Of a DNA stretch of 64,000 bases, positions 10,141-18,461 are shown one piece after another; position 1 is the first letter of the stretch, and every line of letters begins with the position of its first letter. Source of the DNA: an uncultured Acidobacteriota bacterium (GTDB taxonomy: Bacteria > Acidobacteriota > Thermoanaerobaculia > Multivoradales > UBA5704); NCBI GenBank assembly GCA_963718645.1, contig OY970373.1, forward strand, positions 5,802,452 to 5,866,451, written 5' to 3'. A program made the translations under genes and the position numbers. Below the pieces are notes generated by a model, which saw nothing but the letters and a program-made list of their open reading frames with translations, was not told where the DNA came from and did no database searches.

Positions 10141-10238
10141 GGCGCAACGTTAGCCAGCTCCATGCCCCCCGTCAACGGGCAGAGGCCTGTCCCCGTCCTC
10201 CGGCCGGCGCGCACTAGCCTTGTAGGGAGGAGCGACGT

Positions 10239-11270
10239 TTGATCCTGATCCTCAGCCAGTCTTCATTGGAGCCCACGACCGAGGAGGTCATGGACTGGCT
10301 GTGGGCGCTCGGCGGCTCCTGCGTGCGCCTCAACGGCGACGACATCGAGGGTCGCTGCGCCCTCCGCTTCGAGATCGACGGCGCGGAGGCCTCCCTGGTC
10401 TTCACCTCCGACGACGGCGAGCTGCCGCTCTTGGAGGTCGGCGCCGTCTGGTTCCGCCGCTGGATCTTCGAGCGGCGCCACGAGTCCGTGGATCTGCTGG
10501 CGCGCCCGGCGGCGGACAACCACACGCTCCACTACGAGCTCCGGCGCCACCTCAACCTGGAGTCCCGGCGGCTCAGCGACTTCCTCTATTCGAGCCTCGC
10601 CGGCCGCCCCTGGCTCAGCCACCCCCGGCGCTCGAACCTCAACAAGCTCGACGTCCTCCAGCGCGCCGCCCGCGCCGGCCTCGCCACGCCGGCCACCCTG
10701 GTCACCACCGAGCGCGAGGCGCTCCGCCGCTTCTGCGTGGAGCGCGGGCCGGTGATCACCAAGCCGATCGGCGAGGTCGACGCCTTCCTCGACGGCGAGG
10801 TCGCGCACTACCTGTACACCACCGCTCTCGGCCTCGCGGAGATCGACGCGCTCCCCGCCCGCTTCGCCCCCTCGCTGTTTCAGGAGCAGGTGGAGAAGGC
10901 CTACGAGGTGCGGGTCTTCCACCTCGCCGGCGAGCTCCACGCGATGGCCATCTTCTCTCAGAACGACGACCAGACCCGGGTCGATTTCCGCCAGTACAAC
11001 CGGCAGCGGCCGAACCGCAACGTGCCCTACCGCCTCCCCGCGGAGACCGCCGCCGCCCTCCTCCGCCTGATGGCCGACCTCGACCTCGAGACCGGCTCGA
11101 TCGACCTGCTGGTGCGGCCGGACGGCGGCGAGGTCTTCCTGGAGGTCAATCCGGTCGGGCAGTTCGGAATGGTGTCGAAACCGTGCAACTACCCCCTGGA
11201 GCGGAAGGTCGCGGAGCTGCTCCTCCGCAAGGCCGATTCCGAGAAGAGCCATGATGAAAGACGACCCTGA
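10239..11270 (+). CDS. ATP-grasp ribosomal peptide maturase (grasp-with-spasm / RimK-like family)
   Basis: TTG start preceded by GGGAGG RBS. ATP-grasp fold motifs ('VITKPIGEV', 'EVRVFHLAGELHAMAI', 'GSIDLLVRPDGGEVFLEVNPVGQFG'). Sits in an operon with a SPASM protein and a small precursor gene. Confidence 0.8.
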   Translation: MILILSQSSLEPTTEEVMDWLWALGGSCVRLNGDDIEGRCALRFEIDGAEASLVFTSDDGELPLLEVGAVWFRRWIFERRHESVDLLARPAADNHTLHYELRRHLNLESRRLSDFLYSSLAGRPWLSHPRRSNLNKLDVLQRAARAGLATPATLVTTEREALRRFCVERGPVITKPIGEVDAFLDGEVAHYLYTTALGLAEIDALPARFAPSLFQEQVEKAYEVRVFHLAGELHAMAIFSQNDDQTRVDFRQYNRQRPNRNVPYRLPAETAAALLRLMADLDLETGSIDLLVRPDGGEVFLEVNPVGQFGMVSKPCNYPLERKVAELLLRKADSEKSHDERRP

Positions 11271-11463
11271 AGAGATCTTCGCGCGCCTCTCGCTCGAGGG
11301 GCAGGAGCTGGCGCCGGTGATCTACCGCCACCTGCACCCGCGGGCCAACCGCGCGACGGTCCTGCGGCTCGTCGAGTGCCGCCCCTACCGCGCCACGGGC
11401 TACATCTGTGGGAGCTTCCGCAAGCCGATCTCGAAGTGCTGCGGGCCCGATGAGGAACCTTAA
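11251..11463 (+). CDS. Small hypothetical protein (70 aa) inside the RiPP operon
   Basis: Very high GC3 codon bias consistent with real coding. Overlaps the end of the ATP-grasp gene and the start of the SPASM gene. Cys-rich C-terminus (CGSFRKPISKCCGP). Confidence 0.4.
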   Translation: MMKDDPEEIFARLSLEGQELAPVIYRHLHPRANRATVLRLVECRPYRATGYICGSFRKPISKCCGPDEEP

Positions 11464-12520
11464 GGCCGTCTTCTCCCTCTTCGCCTGCTGCCTGCCGGTG
11501 AAGGGAGCGCGCCGCAGCCTCGTCTGCGACCTCCAGCGGCAATCGTTCCAGTTCATCCCCAACGGCCTCTACGAGATCCTGACCGAGCACGCCGGCGAGA
11601 CGGTGGACCAGATCAAGGCGGCCTACGAGCACGAGTACGACACGGAGATCGACGAGTACTTCGCCTTCCTCCTGCACCACGAATTCGGCTTCTGGTGCGG
11701 CCACCCCCAGCGCTTCCCGCCGATCGACCTGACCTGGGAGGCGCCGGAGCGGATCACCAACGCCATCCTCGACCTCGACGAGCGGTCCGACCACGACATC
11801 CCGAAGATCCTCGCCGAGCTCGACGACCTCGGCTGCAAGGCGCTGGAGGTCCGCTGCTTCCACGCCACCCCACTATGCGAGCTGCGCGCACTCCTGGAGG
11901 CGGCCCTCCAGAGCCGGCTGCGCTCGATCGACCTGCTGGCCGGCTTCACCCCCGAGCTCACTCCTGAAGTGCTCGCGAGCCTGGTCGCCGAGCACCGCCG
12001 GGTGAGCAGCGTGGTGGTCCACTCGGCGCCGGCGAACCGGCGGCTCCCGCCGACCCAGACCGGCGTCACGATGGAATTTCGCGCCGAGGTGATCGGCTCT
12101 CCCGCCTGCTGCGGCAAGATCCACCCCGGGTACTTCGTGGTCGACCTGGAGACCTTCGCCGAGGGGCTGCGGCACAACACCTGCCTGAACCGCAAGATCT
12201 CGGTCGACGCCCGCGGGGAGATCCGCAACTGCCCGTCGCTGCCGCGGTCGTTCGGCAACGCGCGCCAGGTGTCGCTGCACAGCGCGCTGGCGCACCGCGA
12301 CTTCGCCGCCCTCTGGTCGATCAACAAGGACCAGATCGACATCTGCAAGGACTGCGAGTTCCGCTACGTCTGCACCGACTGCCGCGCTTATCTCCAGAGC
12401 CCGTCGGACCTCTATTCGAAGCCCTCCAAGTGCGGCTACGACCCCTATACCGCCGAGTGGCGTTCCTCGGCGGAACCGCCGGCCGCGCTGGCCGGCATCA
12501 CGAAAGGAGTTTTCCCATGA
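11450..12520 (+). CDS. SPASM-domain peptide maturase lacking the radical-SAM CxxxCxxC triad (grasp-with-spasm type)
   Basis: C-terminal SPASM cysteine clusters (CCGKIH...; CPSLPRSF...; CKDCEFRYVCTDCRAY; CGYDP). No canonical CxxxCxxC in the N-terminal barrel region. Stop overlaps the precursor start (ATGA). Start may be the annotated 11408 or the internal ATG at 11450. Confidence 0.7.
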   Translation: MRNLKAVFSLFACCLPVKGARRSLVCDLQRQSFQFIPNGLYEILTEHAGETVDQIKAAYEHEYDTEIDEYFAFLLHHEFGFWCGHPQRFPPIDLTWEAPERITNAILDLDERSDHDIPKILAELDDLGCKALEVRCFHATPLCELRALLEAALQSRLRSIDLLAGFTPELTPEVLASLVAEHRRVSSVVVHSAPANRRLPPTQTGVTMEFRAEVIGSPACCGKIHPGYFVVDLETFAEGLRHNTCLNRKISVDARGEIRNCPSLPRSFGNARQVSLHSALAHRDFAALWSINKDQIDICKDCEFRYVCTDCRAYLQSPSDLYSKPSKCGYDPYTAEWRSSAEPPAALAGITKGVFP

Positions 12521-12678
12521 AGAAGAAGATGGAAAGCCTCGGCGACAAGCTGTTCCGCCCGCTGACGGCCACCGAGCAGAAGCGGATTACGGCCGCCATC
12601 ACCACCACCACGGCGGTGACGCTCTATGAGACCGCCAACCCCAACCCCGACACCCAGCGCGACGGCGACCACGAGTAG
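12517..12678 (+). CDS. Putative RiPP precursor peptide (53 aa), ATP-grasp/SPASM target
   Basis: ATG at 12517 with AAGGAG RBS 9 nt upstream. Sequence MKKKMESLGDKLFRPLTATEQKRITAAITTTTAVTLYETANPNPDTQRDGDHE. The Thr/Glu/Asp-rich C-terminal core is suited to omega-ester/amide crosslinking. Immediately followed by a GC hairpin plus T-run terminator. Confidence 0.65.
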   Translation: MKKKMESLGDKLFRPLTATEQKRITAAITTTTAVTLYETANPNPDTQRDGDHE

Positions 12679-12689
12679 GCCGTCTCCTC

Positions 12690-12727
12690 GAGGAGGGGAG
12701 GAGGCTTGCCTCCCTCCCTCCCTTTTT
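12690..12727 (+). terminator. Rho-independent terminator of the RiPP operon
   Basis: ggaggggaggaggcttgcctccctccctccc followed by ttttt. Confidence 0.6.
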
Positions 12728-12912
12728 CGCGAGAGCTTTCAAAGAATCGGGCCCCTTTCTTTGAAAGCCCTCCGAGCTTTGCAAGCTCACTTTCAAAGCT
12801 TCCCGAGCTTTTAAAGAAACAGGCCATTTTCTTTGAAAGCCTCCCGAGCTTTGCAAGTCCTCTTTCAAAGTTTCCCGAGCTTTGAAAGAATCAGGCCGAT
12901 TCCTTTCAAAGC
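12728..12912. repeat. About 2.5 tandem copies of a ~72-bp unit containing 8 copies of the 9-bp palindrome CTTT(C/G)AAAG
   Basis: Read directly: gagctttcaaag...ctttgaaag...gagctttgcaag...ctttcaaag, repeated. Lies between the RiPP terminator and the Fic gene start. Confidence 0.8.
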
Positions 12913-12929
12913 GTCGTAGGATCTGAGAC

Positions 12930-14069
12930 GTGAACCCCGCCGACTTCCATTCTCCCAGCGCCGGACGCGTCGTCCAGGCTCCAGGAGGGTTCGCGGCCTT
13001 CATTCCCGCGCCGCTGCCTCCCGAGCTGGCGTATCCCCCTTCGCTGGTCCTCGCGCTCTCGCGGGCCGACGCCGCCTTGAGCGAGCTGTCGGGGCTCGGC
13101 CGCCAGCTCCCCAATCCCAACCTGCTGATCGCGCCCTACGTCCGTCGCGAGGCGGTGCTCTCCTCGCGGATCGAAGGCACCCGCGCCAGCCTCTCGGACG
13201 TTCTCCTGGACGAGGCCGAGACGGACCGCTCCCAGGATGCCGACGTGCGCGAGGTGCGGAACTACGTGGAGGCGCTGGAGCACGGCCTGGAGCGCCTGCG
13301 GGAGCTGCCGCTCTCGCTGCGCCTCGTCCGCGAGCTGCACGAGCGGCTGATGCAGGGAGTGCGGGGCGACCAGGCCACGCCGGGGGAGTTCCGCCGCTCG
13401 CAGAACTGGATCGGCCCGGCGGGGAGCACGCCGGCGACCGCACCCTACGTGCCGCCGCCGCCCGACGCGATGATGGACTGCCTCGCCGACTGGGAGGGCT
13501 TCCTCCACGACCGCGACCGCCTCCCCGACCTGATCCAGTGCGCCCTGATGCACGAGCAGTTCGAGGCGATCCACCCGTTCCTGGACGGCAATGGCCGCGT
13601 GGGCAGGCTGCTGATCACGCTCTTCCTGGTCGAGCGCGGCCGTCTCCCTCAGCCCCTGCTCTACCTCTCGGACTTCATCGAGAGCCACCGGCAGGACTAT
13701 TACGACTGTCTCCAGAGCGTGCGGACGGAGGGCGACTGGCCCGGCTGGCTCCACTTCTTCCTCGCCGGCGTGGAGGCGACCGCGCGCTCGGCCGTCCGCC
13801 AGGCGAGCCGCCTGATGGACCTGCGCGAGTCCTACCGGCGGCGCCTGAGCCAGCGCCCCAACGCCCTCCGGCTGGTGGACGAGCTGTTCGCGAACCCCTA
13901 CCTCACCGCCGGCAGGGCGGCACGGGTCCTGGGCGTCACCGACCCCACGGCCCGGCAGGCCATCGCTCGCCTCCAAACGGAGGGCCTGCTCGAAGAGGTG
14001 ACCGGCCGGAGCTGGGGACGGATCTATCTGGCGCGGCCGATTTTGGAGGCGATCGAGGATCGGGGGTGA
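12930..14069 (+). CDS. Fic family protein (Fic/DOC AMPylase-type, C-terminal wHTH)
   Basis: Canonical Fic motif HPFLDGNGRVGRLL. GTG start. Confidence 0.85.
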   Translation: MNPADFHSPSAGRVVQAPGGFAAFIPAPLPPELAYPPSLVLALSRADAALSELSGLGRQLPNPNLLIAPYVRREAVLSSRIEGTRASLSDVLLDEAETDRSQDADVREVRNYVEALEHGLERLRELPLSLRLVRELHERLMQGVRGDQATPGEFRRSQNWIGPAGSTPATAPYVPPPPDAMMDCLADWEGFLHDRDRLPDLIQCALMHEQFEAIHPFLDGNGRVGRLLITLFLVERGRLPQPLLYLSDFIESHRQDYYDCLQSVRTEGDWPGWLHFFLAGVEATARSAVRQASRLMDLRESYRRRLSQRPNALRLVDELFANPYLTAGRAARVLGVTDPTARQAIARLQTEGLLEEVTGRSWGRIYLARPILEAIEDRG

Positions 14070-14118
14070 GCACCGAACCCTTTTGGGAAGCGGATATACT
14101 GAACCCGGAGGACGCCGT

Positions 14119-14343
14119 ATGACGATCGCGGACCTGGAATCCAAGATTCTCGAGCTGGACCCGAAGGAACGAGCGCGCCTGGCTCAACGGCTCCTCGAAA
14201 GCCTGGAGGCGCTCTCCGAAGCTGAAGTCGAGGCACTCTGGCTGAGAGAAGCCGATCATCGGGACCAACAGCTCGACCAGGACCCCTCTCGCGCCATCCC
14301 CGGCGCCGACGTCCTGCGCGAGGCGCGTTCCCTGCTCTCGTGA
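14119..14343 (+). CDS. Putative addiction-module antitoxin component (TIGR02574-like)
   Basis: MTIADLESKILELDPKERARLAQRLLESL... is typical of this antitoxin family. Overlaps the downstream ParE-like gene by 4 nt. Confidence 0.6.
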   Translation: MTIADLESKILELDPKERARLAQRLLESLEALSEAEVEALWLREADHRDQQLDQDPSRAIPGADVLREARSLLS

Positions 14344-14522
14344 GCTTGACCTACTCCTTTGCTCCCGAAGCTCGATTCGAGCTTCTTGAGTCGATCCAAT
14401 ACTACGAATCCGAGAGTCCCGGGCTCGGCTCTGCCTTTCTCTCCTCCGTGAACGAGGGGATCGAGCAACTCCTTGCCTTCCCTGGTCTTCGCGTCGCCTT
14501 TCAATCCGGCTCCGCGTCCTGA
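14340..14522 (+). pseudogene. RelE/ParE-family toxin, C-terminally truncated (~60 of ~95 aa)
   Basis: N-terminal half matches ParE (MSLTYSFAPEARFELLESIQYYESESPGLGSAFLSSVNEGIEQLLAFPG). It then diverges and stops. The conserved C-terminal RxxxxY/H region is missing. Confidence 0.5.
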
Positions 14523-14551
14523 TCCCACTCCGCCTCGGGTTCATCGCCGGC

Positions 14552-15043
14552 ATGTCGCGCCTGCTCTCCGCCCATCCGCGGATCGGCGCGGCGATGCGCG
14601 GCGCCTTCTTCGAGATCATGTTTGCCCCGGGAGCGATGGACCGTGCCGAGCGCGAGATGGTCGCCGCCGTCGACTCGGCGGCGCAGGGGTGCGAGTTCTG
14701 AACCGTCTCTCACGCAGAGTTTCTGCGTGTCGAGAAGAACGATCCCGCCCTGGTCGAGGCGATCCGGCTCCGGCGCTGGCGTGATCTGCCCGGGCTCACC
14801 GCGCGCCAGCGCGCCCTCTGTACGGTGGCCGAGAAGCTGACCCTGACGCCGCTGGCGATGACCGCCGCCGACTGGCAACCGCTGCGCGACCTCGGGTTCG
14901 ACGATCAGGGACTGCTGGAGGTCGGGCACCTGATCAGTATCTTCAACTACTTTCCGCGCATGGCGGACGGCTTCGGCCTGAAGCCCGACTCCCGGTTCCT
15001 CGAAGCCGCGAGGACCGGCGTGCCGCTGCGGAGGTCTTCCTGA
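14552..15043 (+). CDS. AhpD-like (carboxymuconolactone decarboxylase family) protein with in-frame TGA at the CxxC motif (C-E-F-U-x-x-x-H). Candidate selenoprotein or pseudogene. Lacks ~25 N-terminal residues.
   Basis: Single reading frame 14522-15043 aligns to the AhpD-core family (…AAQGCEF*TVSHAEFLR…). TGA at 14699-14701 falls where the second Cys of CxxCxxxH is expected. Hairpin ctct-cacgcag-agttt-ctgcgtg-(tc)-gaga begins 9 nt downstream (14707-14735). Confidence 0.5.
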
Positions 15044-15174
15044 GTCTTGAAGAACCGAGAGCCGGCGCCGCCCTCCGATTCGGGCTTTAACAGGCAAAAT
15101 CGGGCTACTTGTTTTTCGGACGCGAACGAGATTTGACGGCGCGGCTGCCTGGGGGAGCCGCGCCGCAGAGGCGC

Positions 15175-15969
15175 CTAAAGGAAGAGCCCTTCGATGGTCT
15201 CCTGGATCTGCCGCGCCGCCTGGTAGGGGTCGGGGGCGTTGCGGATCGGGCGGCCGACGACGAGGTAGTCGGCGCCGTTGCAGAGGGCCTGCTCGACGGT
15301 GACCACCCGTTTCTGGTCGTCCGCGGGGCGGTTCTCGGCCGGACGGATGCCGGGGGTGACGATCAGCGGCCCGTCGCCCAGGGTCTCGCGCAGGCTCCGC
15401 GCCTCCTGGCCGGAGGCGACCACGCCGTCGCAACCGAGGTCGACCGCCTGCTTCGCCCGCGCCAGCACCAGGGAGTGGACGTCGGCCTGGAAGCCCATGT
15501 CGCGCAGGTCCTCCTGGCTGAGGCTGGTGAGCACGGTGACGGCGAGGATCCGGAGATCCCCCTTCTCGCGGCAGGCGGCTTCCAGGATGGCGGCGCTGCC
15601 GGCGTGGACCGTGGTGAGGGTGATCGGCCAGTTGCGGAGCTGGCGGACGGCGGAGCGCACGGTCTCGGGGACGTCGAAGAGCTTGAGGTCGGCGAAGACC
15701 TTGTTGCCGCGCTCGACCAGCCACTCGATCAGCTCGAAATAGCCGCCGGTGGCGAACAGCTCGAGGCCGACCTTGTAGAACTGCACCGCGTCGTCGAGGC
15801 GCTCGACCAGGCGCTTGGCCTCGTCGACGCTCGGCACGTCGAGAGCGAAGATCAGCCGGTCTTCGGGGGGGATCGTCTTGGTGGAGAGGAACCGGGCGTC
15901 GCCGGCTTCGGGGTGCCGGGTTTCGGGATGCTGAGGATGCTGCGGGGTCTCGGGGGTGCTCTGGGTCAT
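15175..15969 (-). CDS. pyrF: Orotidine 5'-phosphate decarboxylase
   Basis: Conserved OMP-decarboxylase motifs (KVGLELF, DLKLFDVPETV, ILAVTVLTS, GxxxxVxGRPI). Confidence 0.85.
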   Translation of the reverse strand: MTQSTPETPQHPQHPETRHPEAGDARFLSTKTIPPEDRLIFALDVPSVDEAKRLVERLDDAVQFYKVGLELFATGGYFELIEWLVERGNKVFADLKLFDVPETVRSAVRQLRNWPITLTTVHAGSAAILEAACREKGDLRILAVTVLTSLSQEDLRDMGFQADVHSLVLARAKQAVDLGCDGVVASGQEARSLRETLGDGPLIVTPGIRPAENRPADDQKRVVTVEQALCNGADYLVVGRPIRNAPDPYQAARQIQETIEGLFL

Positions 15970-16168
15970 GTTTGCCCTCCGAGGATGCGACGATAGCACA
16001 GAGGGGATGGGGGCGCTCGCGGCCTGCGACCTCACCCTCGGTCCCTCTCCTGAAGGAGAGGGAGGGCCCTCGTAGGATAGTTCGGTTCGAAATCGCCCCC
16101 CTTCTCCTTCAGGAGAAGGGCCGGGGATGAGGTTGCAGGCCGCAGGGGCCGATCGAAGCTGAATTCTT

Positions 16169-16516
16169 CTACTTCACCCCCAGCAGCTCCACCTCGAAGA
16201 TCAGCGTCGCATTGGCCGGGATCACGCCGCCGGCGCCGCGGGTGCCGTAGCCGAGGTCGGCGGGGATGGTGAGGCGGCGCTTGCCGCCGATCTTCATGCC
16301 GGCGACCCCCTCGTCCCAGCCGCGGATGACCTGGCCGGCGCCGAGCTTGAAGCTGAAGGGGCCGCGGCCGACGCTGGAGTCGAACTTGGTGCCGTTCTCC
16401 AGCCAGCCGGTGTAGTGGACGTTGACGGTCTGCCCGGCCGTCGCTTCCTGGCCGGTGCCTGTGACGGTGTCGGTGTACTTGAGGCCGGAGGCGGTGGTGA
16501 TTTCCTGGTCTGCCAT
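16169..16516 (-). CDS. FKBP-type peptidyl-prolyl cis-trans isomerase
   Basis: 115 aa, FKBP12-like core ([12 protein letters not shown]...[16 protein letters not shown]...[20 protein letters not shown]...LIFEVELL). Confidence 0.9.
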
Positions 16517-16573
16517 GGGCGTCTCCCGAGTCCGCTCAAGGGCTGGGGCCCATCCCCGCCCAGGTCGGGGAGC

Positions 16574-17044
16574 TTACCGCACTCCCAGCAGCTCGAACTC
16601 GTAATAGAGCACGGAGCCGGGCGGCACGACGCTGCCAACCCCCTGCTTGCCGAAGCCGAGGTCGGGCGGGATGACCAGCCGCCGCTTCCCCCCCACCTTC
16701 ATGCCGACCAGCCCCTCGTCCCACCCCTTGATGGCGTCGCCGGCGCCGAGGCGGAAGGTGAACGGGCGGTCGCGGTCGCGGCTGGAGTCGAACCGCGTGC
16801 CGTCCCCCAGCCAGCCGACGTACTGTACGGCGACGATTTTGCCGGCCTGCGCCTCGTCGCCCGACCCGAGCCGGAGGTCGACGTAGCGCAGGCCGCTCGC
16901 GGTGACCACCTCCGGGGCGGTCACCGTGGCGTCCGAGCGCGCCTGCGTGGGTCCGGGCGCCGCGAGGAGGAGCTCCGGGCGCGGTCCCGCGACGGTCAGG
17001 AGGGTGGCGATGAGGAGGAGCGGAACGATCGTCTTCGGGTGCAT
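16574..17044 (-). CDS. FKBP-type peptidyl-prolyl cis-trans isomerase, secreted (signal peptide)
   Basis: Signal peptide plus FKBP core paralogous to the upstream gene. Confidence 0.85.
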   Translation of the reverse strand: MHPKTIVPLLLIATLLTVAGPRPELLLAAPGPTQARSDATVTAPEVVTASGLRYVDLRLGSGDEAQAGKIVAVQYVGWLGDGTRFDSSRDRDRPFTFRLGAGDAIKGWDEGLVGMKVGGKRRLVIPPDLGFGKQGVGSVVPPGSVLYYEFELLGVR

Positions 17045-17129: not shown

Positions 17130-18461
17130 TCAAGTCGCCCGCCGCACCACTCGCCCGTCCTTGACCACAGCGGCGACCGGATTGATCCCGTAGTGATAGA
17201 CGAGGTGGAGGAGGTTGGGTGCCTGGAGCAGCACGAGGTCCGCGCGCTTGCCCGCCTCGATCGAGCCGATCTCGCTCCCGAGGCCGAGGCAGCAGGCGGA
17301 GTTCAGGGTGGCGGCGGCGAGGCTCTCCTCGATGGTGAGCCCCAGTTGGAAGACGGCGAGCAGCACCACCATCGGCATCGACTCGGTGTAGGACGAGCCC
17401 GGGTTGCAGTCGGTGGCGAGGGCGACCGGCACGCCGGCCTCGATCAGCCGGCGGGCGGGCGCGTAGTGCTGCTTCTTGAGAAAGAAGCTGGTGCCGGGGA
17501 GGAGCACGGCGGTGACCCCCGAGCGCGCCAGCGCGTCGACACCGGCCGGCGACACCGCCATCAGGTGGTCGGCCGAGAAGGCGCCGAGGTCGGCGGCGAG
17601 CTCGGCGCCGCCGGAGTCCACGAACTCGTCGGCATGGAGGCGGGGGAGCAGGCCATGGCGCGCGCCGGCCTCCAGCACCCGGCGCGACTCCGCCGCCGAG
17701 AACACCCCCACCTCGCAGAATACGTCGCAGAAGCGGGCGAGCCCGGCTTCGGCGGTGGCGGGCACGATCTCCTCGCAGATCTGGTCGACCCAGCGGCTCC
17801 GGCCTTTTCCGTTGTCGCCGCCGTAGTCCCCACGATACTCGGGTGGCACCTCGTGGGCGGCGAGCAGCGTCGGCACCAGGTCGACCGCATGGCGGGAGGA
17901 GGCCTCGCGGATGGCGCGGAGCTGCTTGAGCTCGTCCACCTGGTTGAGGCCGTAGCCGCTCTTCGCCTCGGCGGTGGTGGTACCCCAGGCGAGCATCTGG
18001 TCCATGCGGCGCAGCACGTTGCCGATCAGGTCGTCCTCGCTCGCCCGGCGGGTGGCCGCCACGGTCGACAGGATGCCGCCCCCGGCCGCCGCGATCTCCT
18101 GATAGGTCGTCCCCGCCAGCCGCTTCGCGAACTCGTCCTCGCGGCTGCCGGCCCAGGGGAGATGGGTGTGGGGATCGACGAACCCCGGGATCAGCGTCCC
18201 CCCCTGGCCGTCGAGCCGCTCGGCGTCCGGAAGCTCGCCGAACTGCCGCCGCCGCTCCTCGGGGGAGCCCACGAAGGCGATCCGGCCGTCGCGGCAGACC
18301 ACCTCCGCGTTCGCGATCCGGCGCACCCGCCGCTGCTCGGCGCCGCGGAGAGGCTGGGAGCCTTCGGGGGTGGCCACCTCGGCGAGGTTGTGGAGGAGGA
18401 GGTCGGTCACGGAGGGGGATTGTGGACCTTTCCCCGGGAAAAGCACAACACGGACGAACAC
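17130..18461 (-). CDS. hutI: Imidazolonepropionase (amidohydrolase family)
   Basis: VDPHTHLPWAGSR...KSGYGL...HADE metal-binding motifs of HutI. True start is probably a few codons inside the ORF. Confidence 0.8.
   Translation of the reverse strand: MFVRVVLFPGKGPQSPSVTDLLLHNLAEVATPEGSQPLRGAEQRRVRRIANAEVVCRDGRIAFVGSPEERRRQFGELPDAERLDGQGGTLIPGFVDPHTHLPWAGSREDEFAKRLAGTTYQEIAAAGGGILSTVAATRRASEDDLIGNVLRRMDQMLAWGTTTAEAKSGYGLNQVDELKQLRAIREASSRHAVDLVPTLLAAHEVPPEYRGDYGGDNGKGRSRWVDQICEEIVPATAEAGLARFCDVFCEVGVFSAAESRRVLEAGARHGLLPRLHADEFVDSGGAELAADLGAFSADHLMAVSPAGVDALARSGVTAVLLPGTSFFLKKQHYAPARRLIEAGVPVALATDCNPGSSYTESMPMVVLLAVFQLGLTIEESLAAATLNSACCLGLGSEIGSIEAGKRADLVLLQAPNLLHLVYHYGINPVAAVVKDGRVVRRAT

Follow-up and report, generated by a model that had tools for sequence, protein, structure and literature searches.

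When a TGA stands in frame in the middle of a bacterial gene, is it a selenocysteine (Sec) codon or the mark of a gene in decay? We took up this question for one locus in a 64,000-nucleotide stretch of DNA (the window) from an uncultured Acidobacteriota bacterium (GenBank assembly GCA_963718645.1, contig OY970373.1, positions 5,802,452 to 5,866,451 of the forward strand), where the plus-strand open reading frame (ORF) at 14552-15043 encodes an AhpD-like protein with an internal TGA. An initial annotation, made from the letters of the window, had proposed that this TGA is read as Sec with the help of a downstream hairpin, a selenocysteine insertion sequence (SECIS), and had named a nonsense mutation in a decaying gene as the alternative. 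Our analysis makes it very probable that the locus is a 5′-truncated copy of a known AhpD-like selenoprotein gene (TIGR01926/COG2128, C-x-x-U-x-x-x-H), which carries the conserved Sec codon and SECIS of its family and is possibly a recent remnant.

Conservation of the in-frame TGA

The frame translates as MSRLLSAHPRIG...AAQGCEF, in-frame stop, TVSHAEFLRVEKN...RRSS, stop, and the internal TGA lies within the motif C-x-x-[TGA]-x-x-x-H (GCEF[TGA]TVSH). A scan of species-representative genomes yielded 80 loci; 81 plus-strand homologues were compared at the aligned codon, and the alignment, with the window included, held 82 sequences. TGA occupied this codon in 81/81 homologues, which came from genomes of at least six phyla (mostly metagenome-assembled genomes [MAGs] of Thermoanaerobaculia, Holophagales and other Acidobacteriota, but also Chloroflexota, Actinomycetota, Binatia, Eremiobacterota-type [Elarobacter], Vulcanimicrobiota and Myxococcales). 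The same was true of three metagenome relatives (L001, L087 and L088). Three full-length Cys homologues, P0001, P0004 and P0005 (loci L082-L084), had TGC at this position. These Cys forms confirm that the TGA stands where other members of the AhpD family have the second Cys of their CxxC motif, as the initial annotation had stated, and the alignment of orthologues that it had proposed as a check thus came out in favor of its reading.

In a scan for further in-frame TGAs flanked by coding signal on both sides, the one at 14699 was the sole convincing case. The AhpD-like gene itself ends with TGA (15041-15043), as does the antitoxin gene upstream of it, and the genetic code is therefore standard. 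The TGA-form homologues are under purifying selection (omega, the ratio of nonsynonymous to synonymous rates, was 0.09-0.28). Judged by this comparison, the in-frame TGA at 14699 is a genuine, conserved and ancestral Sec codon, and to annotate it as a stop or as a nonsense mutation would be wrong.

That advice has a wider use, since hundreds of database entries share the miscall and hold only the C-terminal 94-118 residues. Our search of 5.8 billion proteins returned, as closest matches (65-88% identity), C-terminal fragments of that length which begin just past the TGA, while other entries for the family end at "...QDCHY"; the entries are split because gene callers broke the gene at the conserved TGA. 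Misannotation of this family in public sets is systematic: P0002 (L088, 117-713) is shown with W at this position by JGI, although the DNA codon is TGA, and most of the database matches (P0006-P0120) either are such fragments or end at "...QDCHY". A separate case is P0003 (metagenome locus L089, 261-893), which has GGA (Gly) in place of TGA and yet retains most of the SECIS hairpin (CACGCAGAGTTTCTGCGCG); either Sec was recently lost to Gly here, or the sequence contains an error. We also noted that the ORF calls P0009, P0083 and P0086, on metagenome contigs, run from the C-terminal portion of an AhpD-like Sec gene into the N-terminal portion of another, an arrangement which implies that some genomes have Sec-containing copies duplicated in tandem. 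MAG MFD04580.bin.1.152 has three AhpD-like copies (L002, L028 and L051).

The SECIS hairpin

Immediately downstream of the TGA, within the coding sequence, the RNA is predicted to form a bulged hairpin, the elements of which are given in Table 1. The initial annotation had set this hairpin nine nucleotides (nt) after the TGA. The hairpin is indeed present, but nine nt is the distance to its upper stem, and the lower stem begins 4 nt after the TGA. The minimum free energy (MFE; ViennaRNA) of 14702-14740 was -16.3 kcal/mol; when folded by itself, the upper stem-loop gave -10.8 kcal/mol. In comparison with dinucleotide shuffles, a tight 42-nt segment (MFE, -16.3 kcal/mol) had a z score of -3.2, with as-stable folds in 2/200 shuffles, and a looser 71-nt segment had a z score of -0.69, at which the energy of the hairpin is unremarkable. 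Taken alone, the single-sequence fold is suggestive, not decisive. A Rfam scan of the whole window matched four tRNAs only and no SECIS family; the hairpin is thus of a kind for which Rfam lacks a suitable model.

We then compared the hairpin with the bacterial SECIS (bSECIS) model of Zhang and Gladyshev, using the criteria as summarized in PMC13188914. The model asks for 3-9 nt in the loop and 4-16 bp in the stem; one or both of the first two bases of the loop must be G, as a rule with G or U next; and the UGA and the loop must be 16-37 nt apart, with an MFE of -7.5 kcal/mol or lower. The loop of the window hairpin is 3 nt (GUU) or, with the closing A-U pair open, 5 nt (AGUUU), and its upper stem is correspondingly 8 or 7 bp. 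Read as A-G-U-U-U, with the first A and the last U able to pair, the loop fits N1-G-[G/U]-N-N2, and its G and U are invariant in the 82 sequences. From the UGA there are 16 nt to AGUUU (14702-14717) and 17 nt to GUU, and the MFE of -16.3 kcal/mol is well below the required value. The view that the position and shape of the hairpin suit a bacterial SECIS was thus upheld by the published constraints.

The stem is nearly invariant over the 82 sequences: among the 79 that are distinct, 99.6% of cells are paired, and the one variable pair changes from A-U to G-U. No two-sided (compensatory) covariation was found in the hairpin among the 82 sequences. Because a stem this invariant leaves covariation unusable, we relied instead on the freezing of synonymous codons and on the contrast with the Cys forms. 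In these GC-rich genes, codon use over the hairpin (codons +3 to +10, S-H-A-E-F-L-R-V) departs sharply from that elsewhere in the same genes: TCT was used in 67/81 cases (versus 3.5% elsewhere), GCA in 72/84 (versus 4.1%), TTT in 79/81 (versus 5.9%), and CGT in 80/81 (versus 4.5%). These rare codons are fixed over the hairpin, nowhere else in the gene, and in the TGA forms only; the frozen bases are those that form CACGCAG-AGUUU-CUGCGUG and the bulged U. The bulged base itself is U in 68/82 sequences, C in 12 and G in 2 and hence is not invariant. The HAEFLR core is shared by the three Cys forms (...HAEFLRVE or ...HAEFLRLE), which spell it with GCC, TTC, CTC/CTG/CTT and CGG/CGC/CGT and in which the hairpin cannot form.

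In our reading, this contrast between TGA and Cys forms is what a bacterial SECIS inside a gene classically leaves behind. Selection on the RNA, over and above the needs of the protein, appears to maintain the structure, and to do so through synonymous constraint, not compensatory change. Whereas the fold was suggestive, the comparative evidence is, in our judgment, decisive for a putative SECIS at this position. It also provides a reusable signature for the AhpD-like family, CACGCAGAGUUUCUGCGUG, which is kept by rare codons and is absent in the Cys forms.

Family assignment

For profile searches against NCBIfam and Pfam, a Cys was put in place of the in-frame stop. The protein matched TIGR01926 ("peroxidase-related enzyme") with 104.5 bits against a cutoff of 81.8, covering positions 26-176 of the 178 in the profile, and it also matched Pfam CMD. 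A profile of close homologues searched against the PDB found 6k40 (E = 6e-30) and 2oyo (E = 9e-29), which are AhpD or "uncharacterized peroxidase-related protein" entries. The assignment to the AhpD family made from the letters of the window is therefore sound, and so is the accompanying remark that AhpD-like Sec proteins with CxxU are known in bacteria, since the TIGR01926/COG2128 family is well represented in the literature. It was first described from the Sargasso Sea metagenome by Zhang et al. in 2005, with 27 sequences containing a CXXU motif (PMC1088965), and a 2006 survey recorded AhpD-like (COG2128) selenoproteins in sequenced genomes and selenoproteins in Acidobacteria (PMC1794560). 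The family is also in BSepDB (PMC13326102), and "AhpD-like protein, TIGR01926, CxxU" is among the known selenoprotein families in a 2026 review (PMC13188914). Our homologues indicate that this CxxU selenoprotein has a wide distribution, which takes in soil Acidobacteriota (Thermoanaerobaculia/Holophagales), Chloroflexota and a number of candidate phyla.

The missing 5′ end

The initial annotation had overlooked that the ORF at 14552-15043 is not an intact gene. Alignments (blastn) to L001, L002, L028 and L087 all begin at window position 14535 (14523 in one weaker alignment), and by tblastn the window covers residues 28-199 of the 199-residue L001 protein with 87% identity. The L001 gene has 199 codons, an N terminus reading MSEAQQPFITLPTQEEVRAQMPAGRKNPYDFGFIAGMSRLL..., and the same TGA and hairpin; the corresponding window text is ...IPLRLGFIAGMSRLL. 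The closest relative, L087, which came from a pattern search of metagenomes, is 93% identical at the DNA level over 14535-15020 and has the full N terminus (MSDAHEPFIKLPTEEEVRAQMPPGARNPYDFG) and an AGGAGG site. The 81 other aligned sequences all carry extra N-terminal residues (22-33; median, 30). Counted by homology, the window copy lacks about 31 codons, and counted to the first usable ATG, it lacks about 36-37 residues.

The frame is open from 14390, but there is no ATG, GTG or TTG in it before 14552. No Shine-Dalgarno motif lies upstream of this ATG, whereas in all six of the intact relatives whose ATG start was read a GGAG/AGGAGG motif stands 6-9 nt upstream. The comparison thus indicates that ATG 14552 is an internal Met and not the ancestral start. 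A promoter scan of 12600-15250 found no sigma-70-like sites, and neither the lost N-terminal segment nor another copy of the gene could be found above noise elsewhere in the window. The gene is therefore truncated relative to all of its orthologues, has lost its initiation signals, and abuts the stump of a toxin gene, the first two being grounds on which a gene is classed as a pseudogene. The suspicion of a decaying gene voiced in the initial annotation was accordingly misplaced for the TGA, which is a Sec codon, but may apply to the gene as a whole, by way of its 5′ truncation.

Table 1. Positions in the window of the features described in the text
Feature	Position	Strand	Basis or remark
5′-truncated AhpD-like (TIGR01926) selenoprotein gene	14535-15043	+	Homology onset at 14535; in frame through TGA 14699 to terminal TGA 15041-15043
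First available start, ATG	14552-14554	+	Internal family-conserved Met (M37 of L001, M38 of P0001); preceded by ordinary coding sequence
Cys codon TGC of C-x-x-U redox motif	14690-14692	+	Cys invariant in 82/82 aligned sequences
Sec codon, in-frame TGA	14699-14701	+	TGA in 82/82 aligned homologues, window included; TGC in Cys forms L082, L083, L084
His codon CAC of C-x-x-U-x-x-x-H motif	14711-14713	+	Translation of frame
Putative bacterial SECIS-type hairpin inside coding sequence, codons S-H-A-E-F-L-R-V-E	14706-14735	+	Fold and comparative codon evidence
Hairpin lower stem UCUC/GAGA	14706-14709 / 14732-14735	+	ViennaRNA
Hairpin bulged U	14710	+	ViennaRNA
Hairpin upper stem CACGCAGA/UCUGCGUG	14711-14718 / 14722-14729	+	ViennaRNA
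Hairpin loop GUU (AGUUU if closing A-U pair open)	14719-14721	+	ViennaRNA
Hairpin 2-nt bulge UC	14730-14731	+	ViennaRNA
Junction (breakpoint interval), toxin stump/truncated selenoprotein gene	14523-14535		Toxin-stump stop TGA 14520-14522; AhpD homology from 14535
60-residue stump of ParE/RelE-like toxin gene, C-terminal ~40 residues missing	14340-14522	+	Homology to L018 ORF
Antitoxin gene, PF09720 (putative addiction module component)	14119-14343	+	Pfam E = 1.6e-11; TIGR02574 below cutoff
Fic/DOC-family protein with C-terminal helix-turn-helix domain, in variable island	12930-14069	+	Pfam Fic_N 9.5e-29, Fic 2.7e-20
Repetitive extragenic palindromic (REP)-like repeats: two 72-nt tandem units and palindromic CTTTCAAAG/CTTTGAAAG units	12733-12916		Edge of variable island

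The junction and its surroundings

The truncated gene is preceded by a Fic gene, an antitoxin gene whose stop (TGA 14341-14343) overlaps the start of the next ORF, and the toxin stump. The stump had no match in Pfam or NCBIfam; it is 46% identical over residues 10-48 to a 98-residue ORF in L018 (6869-7165), which itself follows an 80-residue antitoxin ORF. A single break appears both to have inactivated the toxin and to have cut off the head of the selenoprotein gene, and the simplest reading of the two stumps would be a single deletion that took the 3′ end of the toxin gene, the intergenic region and the 5′ end of the selenoprotein gene.

The flanks of the AhpD-like gene differ in every relative examined (L001, L002, L028 and L087), and we found no single-step rearrangement path between them. 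L002 holds an 86%-identical copy of the Fic gene, with its intact AhpD-like copy upstream of the same repeats and of that Fic gene; in L001, the AhpD-like gene directly follows a cluster for a ribosomally synthesized and posttranslationally modified peptide (RiPP); and the upstream flank in L087 is unrelated to that of the window. The REP-like element of the window also adjoins the AhpD-like gene in two relatives, upstream of it in L001 and downstream of it in L002. The element seems to be the sign of an island that varies among strains and lies between the MacB/MFS/RiPP genes and pyrF.

The RiPP-like cluster of the window (10218-12678) consists of an MvdD-type ATP-grasp gene (10218-11270), a Cys-rich ORF of 370 residues (11408-12520) that ends in ...CKDCEFRYVCTDCRAYL..., and a short precursor-like ORF (12517-12678) that contains a TTTT run; L001, in its syntenic region, has three short precursor-like ORFs, not one. 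On the other side of the locus lie pyrF (15175-16035), two adjacent genes for FKBP-type peptidyl-prolyl isomerases of 115 and 156 residues (16169-17044, minus strand), and then an amidohydrolase gene (17130-18461).

Remnant or working gene

In an intact member of the family, the UGA would be decoded as Sec, with the hairpin a few nt downstream acting as a bacterial SECIS that binds SelB-GTP-Sec-tRNA(Sec) and brings it to the ribosome as the UGA enters the A site. The product would be a thiol/selenol peroxidase-related oxidoreductase in which Sec takes the place of the second Cys of the CxxC pair. In the window copy, a rearrangement at 14523-14535 would have removed the first ~31 codons, the Shine-Dalgarno site and the last ~40 codons of the ParE/RelE-like toxin gene, the likeliest event being a deletion within a variable island of Fic and toxin-antitoxin genes, presumably with loss of function. 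Since the remaining ORF is uninterrupted and shows no excess of amino acid changes, we infer that the truncation is recent.

A number of our results weigh against this account. On the side of the SECIS, these are the unremarkable energy of the 71-nt segment and the lack of compensatory changes described above. On the side of decoding, no tRNA-Sec was found by ARAGORN in the 64-kb window or in 60 loci, and tblastn with Escherichia coli queries found no match to SelA, SelB or SelD in the window or in any of the 87 loci fetched; the absence of selA, selB, selD and tRNA-Sec from the window is, given this window-only scope, uninformative for the genome. An intact Sec gene persists in relatives that are up to 93% identical, which argues that the lineage decodes Sec, and the source organism therefore probably does so too. 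On the side of the deletion, the AhpD-like and Fic genes follow each other in one order in the window and in another in L002, and the history of the locus needs more than one event. The remaining objections concern the disabled state of the gene. The ORF at 14552-15043 has 163 codons, including Sec, and is free of other stops and frameshifts. Its ratio of nonsynonymous to synonymous substitution rates (dN/dS) against L087 is 0.15 (10 nonsynonymous and 21 synonymous codon differences), and when the changes are divided among three taxa, the window branch has an omega of about 0.13. The ORF is co-oriented with the Fic, antitoxin and truncated toxin genes and lies 29 nt downstream of them. Finally, two CMD-family structures of 145 residues (2ijc and 7xw1) begin at the equivalent of about residue 37, and by analogy a protein starting at Met 14552 could in principle fold.

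The explanation that these last observations favor, and the strongest rival to a disabled remnant, is a functional, N-terminally shortened selenoprotein (14552-15043), in essence what the initial annotation had proposed. It would be transcribed with the Fic, antitoxin and truncated toxin genes, would rely on reinitiation or leaderless-type coupling for its start at the internal Met, and would have its UGA decoded by SelB and the SECIS, both Sec codon and hairpin being perfectly preserved. Co-transcription and reinitiation are possible because the ORF is co-oriented with the toxin stump and follows its stop by only 29 nt. We regard this explanation as a serious one, although we put its chances at somewhat less than even. 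The start lacks the Shine-Dalgarno motif seen in 6/6 relatives; the same truncation occurs in none of the 81 genome homologues, nor in L001 or L087, and so is not a maintained variant; and the partner gene at the junction is also a stump, which resembles collateral damage from a deletion. In an AlphaFold model of the full-length Cys homologue P0001 (mean predicted local distance difference test [pLDDT] score, 86.5), the residues that would be missing (~9-37) are ordered (pLDDT, ~80-84); an extended arm leads to a short helix (17-23), and a loop then connects this to the following helix (35-43), of which the first turn is included.

The low omega does not settle the matter, since it is also expected from a very recent truncation. 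The dN/dS of the window copy against the other relatives was 0.17-0.28, and among intact copies it was 0.09-0.25; extra stops, frameshifts and raised dN/dS, the signs of secondary decay, were not found. A relative-rate comparison gave 10 versus 4 amino acid changes, a small count. Substitutions close to the active site (L to M, D to G and E to V) looked private to the window copy, and we considered them as marks of decay but rejected them, since they are common to the intact L087 and so are lineage traits; likewise, the sole private change at a column conserved to at least 95%, besides the junction residue, is common to L087. Between 14573 and 15014 (with L001 as the third sequence), the window branch has 15 synonymous changes versus 5 for L087, and 11/15 are from G/C to A/T at third positions; the synonymous branch of the window is about 7 times that of L087. 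This A/T-ward excess hints, though not conclusively, at relaxed selection on codon use or GC content after the truncation or at differences in rate between lineages. On balance, we find a newly disabled remnant somewhat more likely than a working shortened selenoprotein. A more specific proposal, that the rearrangement put a minimal AhpD-core selenoprotein starting at Met 14552 under the control of the Fic/antitoxin operon, translated by reinitiation after the toxin-stump ORF without a Shine-Dalgarno site of its own, seems to us rather unlikely; if true, it would provide a natural, N-terminally pared-down Cys-Sec oxidoreductase that still works.

It is improbable that the junction at 14523-14535 is an assembly artifact, that is, a chimeric join of contigs or strains in an organism whose real genome has intact selenoprotein and toxin genes. 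The locus does lie in a strain-variable island with REP-like repeats and has a different flank in the genome of each relative, a misjoin would cut both neighbors, as observed, and the exact junction sequence had no match in metagenome contigs. However, the junction itself offers an assembler no repeat or shared sequence by which it could be misled, and both stumps are equally well explained by a simple deletion.

That the TGA arose by nonsense mutation of a Cys codon (TGC or TGT to TGA) in a decaying Cys-type AhpD gene, beside a coincidental hairpin, can be rejected with near certainty. One base change would suffice, the gene is damaged at its 5′ end, and the 71-nt energy of the hairpin is unexceptional; yet the TGA is conserved in 81/81 homologues across several phyla and in an intact relative 93% identical to the window, fixation of the hairpin-building rare codons is confined to the TGA forms, the Cys forms having none of them, and the TGA forms are under purifying selection. 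Equally negligible is the idea that the TGA is a sense codon (Trp or Gly) under an alternative code or separates two small genes (49 and ~72-113 residues), as the W of P0002, the G of P0003 and the many C-terminal fragments in the databases might suggest: the W is not encoded under the standard code, the G comes from a real GGA codon, the same gene and its neighbors terminate with TGA, and both halves form one TIGR01926 domain whose catalytic motif is split across the TGA.

The truncated copy of an AhpD-like selenoprotein gene that we favor leaves current understanding unchallenged, and its main value lies in a correct annotation and a clean SECIS signature. The truncation itself would be a small, datable case of the loss of a selenoprotein gene by collateral deletion beside a toxin-antitoxin module.

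Comparison with known systems

The GU-containing loop and the 5′ bulged U of the E. coli fdhF SECIS are contact points for SelB. On the face of it, the window hairpin resembles this type of SECIS: it is an intragenic stem-loop a few nt past the UGA, its small apical loop contains G-U, and a U bulges out 5′ of the loop, beside the upper stem. It differs in sequence, its bulged base is variable among homologues, and its binding by SelB is only putative.

Among families with a CMD/AhpD core and CxxU, we considered membership in NF041238 ("AhpD_rel_CFYUT") and NF041537 ("ArsM/AhpD UU") and rejected it, as the scores were 43.3 against a cutoff of 175 and 16.7 against a cutoff of 510, respectively. 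NF041047 ("distant AhpD homolog"), a family named in PMC13188914, was not among the NCBIfam matches of the window protein. The Cys-type peroxidase-related AhpD structures (6K40 from Deinococcus, 2OYO, and also 3C1L, 2PRR and 2PFX) belong to the same fold family, match over essentially their full length, and have their CxxCxxxH in the same helix; they differ in having a Cys-Cys rather than a Cys-Sec pair, a full length of 188-197 residues, and no SECIS.

The closest likeness is to the AhpD-like selenoprotein family (TIGR01926, COG2128) itself. The window copy is without the N-terminal ~31-37 residues and the ribosome-binding site of that family, and it belongs to Acidobacteriota (Thermoanaerobaculia/Holophagales-like by its nearest relatives), whereas the examples in the early papers were marine or from Clostridia. 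With the family it shares the hidden Markov model, the CxxU motif, a Sec aligned to the Cys of the Cys homologues, and a predicted intragenic bSECIS, and the gene is thus a damaged member of an already known family of AhpD-like CxxU selenoproteins.

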